Shown here: positions 46,799-47,603 of the stretch, one piece after another
How positions within the stretch are numbered: position 1 is the stretch's first letter
Layout: each line of letters begins with the position of its first letter
DNA from: Escherichia phage WPEC4
DNA: 64,000 nt
Reading direction: 5' to 3' (one strand)
Sequence record: PV682947.1
Translations under genes and position numbers: made by a program
The notes under the pieces: generated by a model
What the model was told of the DNA's origin: nothing
Seen by the model: only the letters and a program-made list of their open reading frames with translations
Databases searched by the model: none

Positions 46799-47017
46799 AT
46801 GCGTAAATTAGTGAGCTTTAATGTTTCAATTCTTGTTGATGAACAAAATGAAGATGTTATTAAAGGTCTTGCAAATAAGATTGCAGGTGGAATGACGGAA
46901 GCTGAAGTGTGGGAAGAATGTGCTCGACTTTATGAGGAAGGTGTTATTGAGGTCTTGGGGGATGAGATTAATATGGACGATGTTGTAAAAGTAACTGTGG
47001 AGCGTATCAATGACTAA
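46799..47017 (+). CDS. hypothetical protein
   Basis: 72-aa ORF with GGAG RBS. Confidence 0.4.
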   Translation: MRKLVSFNVSILVDEQNEDVIKGLANKIAGGMTEAEVWEECARLYEEGVIEVLGDEINMDDVVKVTVERIND

Positions 47018-47603
47018 ATCAAAACAAATCAATATTGCCAAAGAAATTCTTACCGTATTAAAGATCGCTGATCCTAATTCTGTCTTGGCTGGCGGTGCTG
47101 TTCGTGATTGGCGTATTCTTGATATTGCTGGACGTGATCTGGATTTCTATACATCCCTTCCTGCACATCGGACTGAAGAACAAATACAAGGATTAATTGC
47201 ATCTGCTTTAATGGGAACCAATATTCGTAAACTAGGAAACAAAGAGGCTTCTGACAATTATGAAGGTGTTACTGGTCTTAAACACGTTTTTGAGTTTGAA
47301 CGTGATGGTCAGCTTTGCAACCTTATGATTATGGAACCAAGCGTAATGACAACCTTTCTAAATGAGTTCGATCTGTCCATCTGCCAGGCTGCATTTGATG
47401 GGAAGGATTGTTATTATTCTAAAGATTTTGAAACAACCTTGGAAACAGGGATCTGCTTCTTGCACAAAGACGTTAGAGAAGATGCCAAACATGTTATTAA
47501 AATTGCCACACGTTTCCCATATCTACGTTTTGTTAAAGAAGTGAAGGTTCCGCGTCCACCTCAAGTAGATACCAGATCGGAAGAAGATGATATTCCTTGG
47601 TAA
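47010..47603 (+). CDS. Pol-beta-superfamily nucleotidyltransferase (tRNA CCA-adding enzyme head-domain-like)
   Basis: LAGGAVRDWRILDIAGRDLDFYT matches GGxVRD...DxD head motif of CCA-adding enzymes; only 197 aa. Confidence 0.5.
   Translation: MTKSKQINIAKEILTVLKIADPNSVLAGGAVRDWRILDIAGRDLDFYTSLPAHRTEEQIQGLIASALMGTNIRKLGNKEASDNYEGVTGLKHVFEFERDGQLCNLMIMEPSVMTTFLNEFDLSICQAAFDGKDCYYSKDFETTLETGICFLHKDVREDAKHVIKIATRFPYLRFVKEVKVPRPPQVDTRSEEDDIPW

Follow-up and report, generated by a model that had tools for sequence, protein, structure and literature searches.

The window analyzed here is a 64,000-nucleotide stretch of Escherichia phage WPEC4 (PV682947.1), a phAPEC8-like Phapecoctavirus (Stephanstirmvirinae), and the gene in question encodes a small nucleotidyltransferase (NTase) near the end of a replication operon. 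The NTase is a stand-alone class II Pol-beta head domain with a short neck remnant, in which the metal-binding DxD and the GG are intact, and it possibly works on 3' ends at replication intermediates. Its gene (47010..47603, + strand) is a complete open reading frame (ORF) of 197 aa that begins with ATG and ends with a stop codon at 47601-47603. A ribosome-binding site, GGAG (46999..47002, +), was read directly from the sequence 7 nucleotides (nt) 5' of the ATG, which overlaps the end of the preceding ORF (46799-47017), and this start/stop overlap suggests translational coupling of the two. An earlier note, made from the DNA letters alone, had described the ORF as a minimal CCA-adding-enzyme-like NTase of about half the usual size and had quoted LAGGAVRDWRILDIAGRDLDFYT as its head motif. 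The ORF was borne out, with LAGGAVRDWRILDIAGRDLDFYT forming residues 26-48, as was the size, given that E. coli Cca has 412 aa.

The identification as such is not new. The 1.7 kb around the gene have 100% identity to Escherichia phages WPEC1, WPEC2 and WPEC6 and 98-99% identity to about 60 others, and the identical protein is already deposited as 'nucleotidyltransferase' or 'putative tRNA nucleotidyl transferase / poly(A) polymerase', a type of label in use in GenBank since phAPEC8 (gene 00183). The two PHROG profiles that it matches (phrog_10174, E 6.5e-63; phrog_1614, E 3.5e-11) are likewise both named 'nucleotidyltransferase'. The earlier note thus rediscovered a public annotation, and at that level nothing is added. 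What is new, as far as we can tell, is how large this family of head-only class II proteins is, how consistently it accompanies a primase-helicase and a family A DNA polymerase (Pol A), and the presence of a C-terminal tail similar to the tip of the single-stranded DNA-binding protein (SSB).

The operon lies on the + strand and reads, in order, glycosyltransferases, primase-helicase, a 143-aa ORF, a DNA methylase, Pol A, three small ORFs, the NTase, a 130-aa ORF and a 295-aa protein with an SSB tail, the NTase being the third-last ORF. The primase-helicase (39943..41721, +) is of the T7 gp4 type with Toprim and DnaB_C domains, and Pol A (43049..46381, +) contains an intein-like insert. Downstream of the NTase follow the 130-aa ORF (47649..48041, +) and the 295-aa protein (48058..48945, +), and the operon is closed by a bidirectional hairpin terminator (48977..49000), the equivalent site of phAPEC8 being annotated as a terminator.

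Conservation was assessed in a family alignment of 124 sequences, to which all conservation figures refer. Motif A (residues 26-48; 47085..47153, +), which was delimited by invariance and by class II alignments, holds the GG and the catalytic aspartates D43 and D45. The GGxVRD...DxD head motif noticed earlier is present as GGAVRD...DLD, in which G28, G29, D43 and D45 are invariant, and Q6, A10, A27, A30, R32, D33, W34, Y84 and K164 are at least 90% conserved in the family. Because its residues are invariant or conserved across 124 sequences, the motif A match is not due to chance. W34 is a family-specific signature within the motif.

Curated models did not recognize the protein on its own. Against the Pfam head-domain family PF01743 (PolyA_pol), the single sequence scored 13.8 bits (E 0.074, residues 26-65 only) at a gathering threshold of 23 bits, and it also failed TIGR02692 (E 0.04; 12.6 versus a threshold of 438.8). 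Individually, 17 of the 124 family members match PF01743 at E < 0.01. A phmmer search of the PDB with the single NTase sequence returned only noise. When the family profile was used, all PDB matches except one unrelated C-terminal match were class II enzymes (best E 0.0023), and the hidden Markov model (HMM) alignment to PDB 6ibp spanned profile positions 10-50, i.e., the N-terminal helix and motif A. Homologue searches with E. coli Cca gave orthologues of at least 87% identity only and were unsuitable for building a profile, and with hhalign only motif A of the family aligned to E. coli Cca alone. An alignment of eight class II sequences (E. coli Cca, PcnB and six viral enzymes) matched the family at E 1.8e-5 over 147 aligned columns, motif A falling exactly on LVGGAVRD..LG....D.D of E. 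coli Cca and the seven other enzymes. Fold comparison also placed the NTase nearest to class II enzymes and polynucleotide 3'-end polymerases rather than to NTases of the cGAS-like, antibiotic or MNT type. Homology to the head domain of class II (CCA-adding / poly(A) polymerase) enzymes is therefore supported, and the best matches to unrelated NTases that the earlier note had considered as counter-evidence did not appear.

A structure model generated from the 124-sequence alignment had a per-residue confidence score (pLDDT) of 93.4 and an overall predicted template modeling score (pTM) of 0.86, with lower confidence only in the last ~19 residues. The N-terminal helix (residues 3-20; 47016..47069, +), delimited by DSSP of the model, conservation and the 6ibp HMM alignment, carries conserved Q6, A10, L14 and L17 and equals the helix ahead of motif A in class II enzymes. 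A beta-strand assigned by DSSP (residues 90-98; 47277..47303, +) neighbors the motif A aspartates and carries E95, a position occupied by E in 71, D in 15 and N in 20 of the 124 sequences (D/E 69%, N 16%). From its position, E95 is a candidate third metal-binding carboxylate, which together with A27-G28-G29 and D43-L-D45-F gives the pattern of the Pol-beta superfamily. A remnant of motif B, FDLSICQ (residues 120-126; 47367..47387, +), was recognized by hhalign against the class II alignment and by conservation; F120, S123, I124 and C125 are conserved, and S123-I124-C125 falls on T-I-N of RRDxTINA. There is no RRD, as hhalign sets N118-E119-F120-D121 opposite (K)RRD at positions that are variable in the family. 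In the C-terminal subdomain, VREDAKHVIKIATRFP (residues 155-170; 47472..47519, +; DSSP helix 160-168, conservation and a low-confidence hhalign mapping) corresponds to the start of the neck in the motif D region, with H or Y at residue 161 across the family, a nearly invariant K164 and conserved F169-P170.

The same comparisons show what has been lost. EDxxR, the amino-acid template by which class II enzymes read CTP and ATP (PMC8563995), does not appear to be conserved across the family, judging from both the alignment and hhalign; in a low-confidence region, hhalign sets E157-D158-A-K-H161 opposite EDPLR of EDPLRxLRxxRF, and positions 157 and 158 are unconserved. The body and tail domains, with which class II enzymes recognize the acceptor and T-arm helices of tRNA (PMC3925840), are absent. 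The folded part of the model stops at ~residue 178 and the protein at 197, so that the structure prediction proposed in the earlier note found both domains missing. Orthologues of E. coli Cca carry PF12627 and PF01966 besides the head domain, and no informative Pfam domain, hence no fusion clue, was found in those members of the family (254-400 aa) that are extended at the N- or C-terminus. Net charge and isoelectric point (pI) do not discriminate, the family median pI of 6.3 being like that of canonical CCA enzymes. Judged by its sub-threshold Pfam score, the missing RRD, the apparently unconserved EDxxR and the missing body and tail, the NTase is not a canonical CCA-adding enzyme. Of the CCA-enzyme-like assignment made earlier, the relationship to the class II head domain stands and the equation with a canonical enzyme does not.

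To estimate the extent of the family, we ran a profile built from close homologues against 1.84 billion cluster representatives. Matching proteins numbered 1053 at E <= 1e-3 and 335 at E <= 1e-10, and nearly all were stand-alone and 175-220 aa long; the family amounts to over 1000 clusters at 50% identity. A scan of prokaryotes for the signature [LV]AGGA[PV]RDW, with one genome for each of 185,579 species, yielded five loci, all on metagenome-assembled contigs, and the family appears to be restricted to viruses. Among cultured phages, about 190-195 records contain a member, and the carriers are Stephanstirmvirinae (Phapecoctavirus and Justusliebigvirus, including phi92 gp158), some Klebsiella and Citrobacter phages, and Vibrio phages. 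The homologue of Vibrio phage ICP1, ORF223 (5956-6369 of locus L028), is a head domain of 137 aa without the C-terminal subdomain that corresponds to residues ~128-178 here. It may be a truncated or minimal form, and the PHROG 10174 profile likewise has 137 positions.

Head-only class II domains are a known but uncharacterized kind. With the full-length class II tRNA nucleotidyltransferases and poly(A) polymerase (E. coli Cca and PcnB; PDB 1miv, 3h37, 4wby and 3aql), the NTase shares the N-terminal helix, GGxVRD, DxD, a vestige of motif B in which SIC stands in the place of TIN, and a helix where motif D would lie. It differs from them in being half-size, below the Pfam threshold, without RRD, motif E, body, tail and HD domains and apparently without a conserved EDxxR, as well as in the W34 signature, the apparently virus-restricted distribution and the location in a replication operon. 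The bacterial 'CCA-adding enzyme head domain' NP_344798.1 (PDB 2la3, 191 aa) is also stand-alone; it has 13% identity to the NTase and, unlike it, no known SSB-like tail or replication context. In a Foldseek search of viral models, head-only proteins of Autographiviridae were found at 14-20% identity (E 1e-6 to 1e-9), annotated as 'nucleotidyltransferase / poly A polymerase head domain' in phages LKD16, PP2, DU_PP_II, Ninurta, phiNV3, PS3 and Cd1. Such proteins (phiKMV-like LKD16, Aeromonas Ahp1 ORF19, Pectobacterium PP2 and PP47, fHe-Kpn01 Gp22) have 167-205 aa and only motif A of the class II motifs, and their genes lie between helicase/ligase and DNA polymerase (PMC7693777). They are structurally similar to the NTase; tblastn with the family did not find them, and an equation of the family with Gp22 or the Pectobacterium phage NTases was rejected, as the connection is one of fold only. 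Gp22, with an HHpred E of 3e-19 to CCA enzymes (PMC7291057), is nearer to the canonical enzymes than the present family.

The genomic neighborhood was compared across 80 related viral loci, in 76 of which an NTase ORF was called; all 1337 ORFs were clustered and a window of 6 kb around the NTase was considered. The primase-helicase (phrog_239) was present in 52 of the 76 loci and Pol A (phrog_17) in 43, nearly always on the same strand as the NTase (48/50 and 50/50 gene copies, respectively) and typically in the order primase-helicase, NTase, polymerase. When loci were reduced to 36 lineages at 50% identity, at least one of the two was nearby in 25 and both were in 16. A second polymerase family, a FEN-type exonuclease, gp2.5-like SSBs and HNH endonucleases also recurred. 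The primase-helicase and Pol A of the window itself belong to these co-occurring families. Within the clade of the NTase studied here, the 130-aa ORF (PHROG 16560, unknown function; a cluster of nine loci) lies 41-53 nt 3' of the NTase gene on the same strand in 9/9 loci. It had no Pfam or PADLOC match and may be a functional partner of the NTase.

The C-terminal residues 179-197 (47544..47600, +) form an acidic tail ending in EEDDIPW, over which model confidence declines (pLDDT 79 in the second-last block and 61 in the last), and the tail is probably disordered. In all homologues of 58-97% identity, the DDIPW of the C-terminus (...RSEEDDIPW) is kept, while the linker ahead of it varies in length and sequence. 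Distant representatives have similar ends (PDDIPW, SNDIPW, ESIPY, KPIPF, DEEF, DDDF), and the end of E. coli SSB is DFDDDIPF. Acidic-aromatic or IP[FWY] ends occurred in only 40 of the 1337 ORFs, most of them SSB-type proteins, gp2.5-like SSBs, primase-helicases and NTases of five lineages. The SSB C-terminal tip, the acidic C-terminal tails of T7 gp2.5 and gp4 and the NTase tail are alike in running through acidic residues after a variable linker, to an I-P-aromatic end in the case of SSB and the NTase. Tails of this kind are docking devices, as is the tip of E. coli SSB and as are those of T7 gp2.5 and gp4 on the polymerase. By analogy, the tail suggests that the NTase of this clade may plug into sites that bind the SSB tip. 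Compared with SSB, the likeness, which is known from sequence, is confined to five residues (DDIPW) and is found on an enzyme.

Two genes 3' of the NTase, the 295-aa protein ends in EPPMDFDDDIPF, and these last 12 residues are identical to those of E. coli SSB. Outside the tail it is unrelated to E. coli SSB, no Pfam SSB domain was found in it, and its SSB label comes from the annotation of related phages and from PHROG matches that are confined to the tail. The protein looks like a phage protein that has borrowed the interaction tip of the host SSB. As a separate observation, phrog_862 proteins of unknown function (223-245 aa), which other phages encode in their replication modules, have the C-termini DKDIPW, GDDVPW or GEDTPW (for example 3134-3805 of locus L033, 727-1416 of L026 and 7807-8544 of L042), so that I/V/T-P-W tips are found in other replication-module proteins as well. 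The phrog_862 proteins may be unrecognized SSBs.

The family has thus shed the known means of binding tRNA and, apparently, those of CCA specificity and has kept an intact active site and a linkage to T7-type replication modules. Our tentative preference is that the NTase is a partner-recruited 3'-terminal nucleotidyltransferase working at replication intermediates. It would be an active, template-independent enzyme that adds nucleotides to a polynucleotide 3'-OH, and, since it has no tRNA-binding body or tail, no RRD and apparently no conserved EDxxR, a partner protein would have to present the substrate. In this clade, the DDIPW tail would dock the enzyme at SSB-tip binding sites, either on phage replisome proteins or on host proteins that interact with SSB. 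The likeliest substrates would be 3' ends at replication intermediates (RNA primers, nascent DNA or single-stranded DNA ends), free tRNA being less likely. If these enzymes act at the fork or are recruited through an SSB-tip mimic, the CCA-enzyme fold would have been put to a new use, and a novel type of replisome accessory would have been found.

Several observations weigh against this proposal. Only a minority of the family (~5/36 lineages of the loci and ~8/150 representatives) has the SSB-like tail, which cannot account for the family as a whole and whose tip has W where SSB has F. Position 95, the site of the candidate third carboxylate, is N in part of the family. The neighborhood may mirror no more than the timing of expression, and in T7 anti-defense genes also occupy the space between replication genes. 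To our knowledge, all characterized class II enzymes act on RNA 3' ends (tRNA or mRNA) and none on DNA, and in the literature no biochemical study was found for any head-only phage class II enzyme. Finally, the phage is invested in the upkeep of tRNA, having many tRNA genes and a cassette of Rnl1-like RNA ligase, kinase and phosphoesterase.

The last point bears on the alternative closest to the earlier note, which had suggested that the enzyme restores or modifies tRNA 3' ends. Under this explanation, a minimal repair or modification enzyme would, in the infected cell, re-add or extend nucleotides at CCA ends that have been damaged on tRNAs of the host or the phage and could counter CCA-trimming nucleases or defenses that target the tRNA tail, with binding provided by the acceptor stem alone or by a partner. 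The nearest relatives by sequence and fold are indeed CCA-adding, A-adding and poly(A) enzymes, for all characterized members of which RNA 3' ends are the substrate. Full-length canonical class II CCA enzymes were found in 423 phage records, which indicates that phages benefit from CCA repair, and tRNA-tail-cutting defenses exist (PMC12851939). The tRNA genes themselves provide a different picture. ARAGORN identified 10 tRNAs in the window, and 10/10 had a genome-encoded CCA end, as the earlier note had remarked for most of them. Its two degenerate elements without CCA were not reproduced: Rfam found two further tRNA-like elements missed by ARAGORN, a tRNA-Sec-like element (28454-28540, +; 37 bits, below the gathering score of 47) and a tRNA (28765-28849, +; 39 bits), both followed by CCA, and no tRNA-like element lacking CCA was found in the window by either program. 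At a place apparently matching 28765-28849, WPEC1 is annotated with a tRNA-Tyr between tRNA-Ser and tRNA-Asn. As all 12 tRNA or tRNA-like genes encode CCA, CCA addition is not needed for their maturation, and the host has its own Cca.

Location gives no tRNA connection either. The NTase gene lies 17 kb downstream of the tRNA cluster, and a tRNA gene is found no more than 6 kb from the NTase in only 5 of 50 related loci; tRNA adjacency of the family was rejected on account of the other 45. The related Vequintavirinae phage SSE121 encodes a canonical CCA enzyme of 417 aa whose gene is not syntenic with the NTase, and a positional replacement of a canonical CCA gene by the NTase was likewise discarded. 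Added to the loss of the domains that recognize the acceptor and T-arm (PMC3925840) and to a missing RRD and apparently unconserved EDxxR that would make CCA specificity by the known mechanism impossible, the sub-threshold Pfam score and the replication operon disfavor tRNA-end repair, which we regard as possible but on the unlikely side. If it were true, the protein would define the minimal needs for polymerization at tRNA 3' ends and would constitute a counter to tRNA-tail-cutting defenses.

The cassette mentioned above lies in WPEC1 (PV659873.1, 33535-35425; 6536-8426 of locus L092), just outside the window. Its annotated products are an ATPase of the nucleoside-kinase superfamily, a metallophosphoesterase and an Rnl1-like RNA ligase (labelled 'RNA ligase and tail fiber protein attachment catalyst'). 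The cassette resembles a T4-type healing-and-sealing system for tRNA and is not linked to the NTase gene. At 30080-30134 (+) a weak RyhB-like Rfam match was seen (29 bits versus a gathering score of 55, E 0.009), which is probably a chance match.

A role in counter-defense or host takeover, with a target that is unusual or not a polynucleotide, seems improbable. In that role, the enzyme might transfer nucleotides to a protein or small molecule of the host, produce or cap a signaling nucleotide, or add tails to host RNAs so as to shut the host down. The Klebsiella phage protein fHe-Kpn01 Gp22, a head-only class II-like protein of 182 aa, is toxic in E. coli (PMC7291057). Among the Autographiviridae proteins toxicity has been shown for Gp22 only, and since sequence searches did not link Gp22 to the present family, the finding may not carry over. 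MenT and AbiEii (DUF1814) toxins are small stand-alone Pol-beta NTases that act on tRNA 3' ends without the body or tail of CCA enzymes (PMC10435456, PMC11541572). The NTase matched none of the PADLOC defense-system models, and it does not group with MenT/AbiEii or other defense-associated NTases, for which such a match and a partner antitoxin or effector gene would be expected. The apparently virus-restricted and patchy distribution is that of many accessory or anti-defense genes, the base-selecting residues appear unlike those of known enzymes, and an SSB-tip mimic could equally be a decoy for host SSB-interacting proteins. On the other hand, it is polynucleotide 3'-end polymerases that come nearest in fold, and not enzymes of the cGAS-like, antibiotic or MNT type, and a stable linkage to the replication module in 25/36 lineages is unusual for an anti-defense gene, which would be expected to shuffle.

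A more specific version of action at replication intermediates would make the NTase a replisome accessory, docked through its tail on the T7-type machinery or on host SSB partners, that makes, extends or edits the 3' ends of short priming RNAs; we consider this quite unlikely. In one speculative form, it would generate or trim CCA-type ends. In T7, the tRNA 3'-ACCA end is reportedly identical to a primer made by the primase and able to prime DNA synthesis (attributed to Zhu et al., 2012, a study cited in PMC3897749), and this identity offers a speculative bridge between replication and tRNA. If true, it would link a tRNA-end enzyme fold to DNA replication. Least probable of all is a replisome regulator or scaffold that binds nucleotides but has little or no catalytic activity, acting as an NTP sensor or as a bridge between SSB-tip sites: a third carboxylate that is not strictly conserved (N in 20/124), the retention of only the first ~137 aa in ICP1 and the lack of a nucleic-acid-binding domain would fit it, but the invariance of G28, G29, D43 and D45 in 124 diverse sequences, with near-invariant R32, D33 and K164, is the pattern of a maintained active site.

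Three minor features of the surrounding operon were noted. The insert in Pol A (44795-45529, +) comprises 245 aa relative to the phAPEC8 enzyme (1110 versus 865 aa), begins with Cys, ends in ...TGN, is followed by Cys and contains a LAGLIDADG-like motif, LEGFLIADG. It had no Pfam intein match at E <= 0.01, and from these sequence features it looks like an intein. Directly 3' of Pol A, a 63-aa ORF (46430-46621, +; PHROG 25582, unknown function) has a zinc-ribbon-like CxxC...CxxC arrangement (CWSCG...CIHC). The four consecutive genes just 5' of the primase-helicase (36508-39652, +) are glycosyltransferases according to the WPEC1 annotation, and their target might be DNA or the cell surface.

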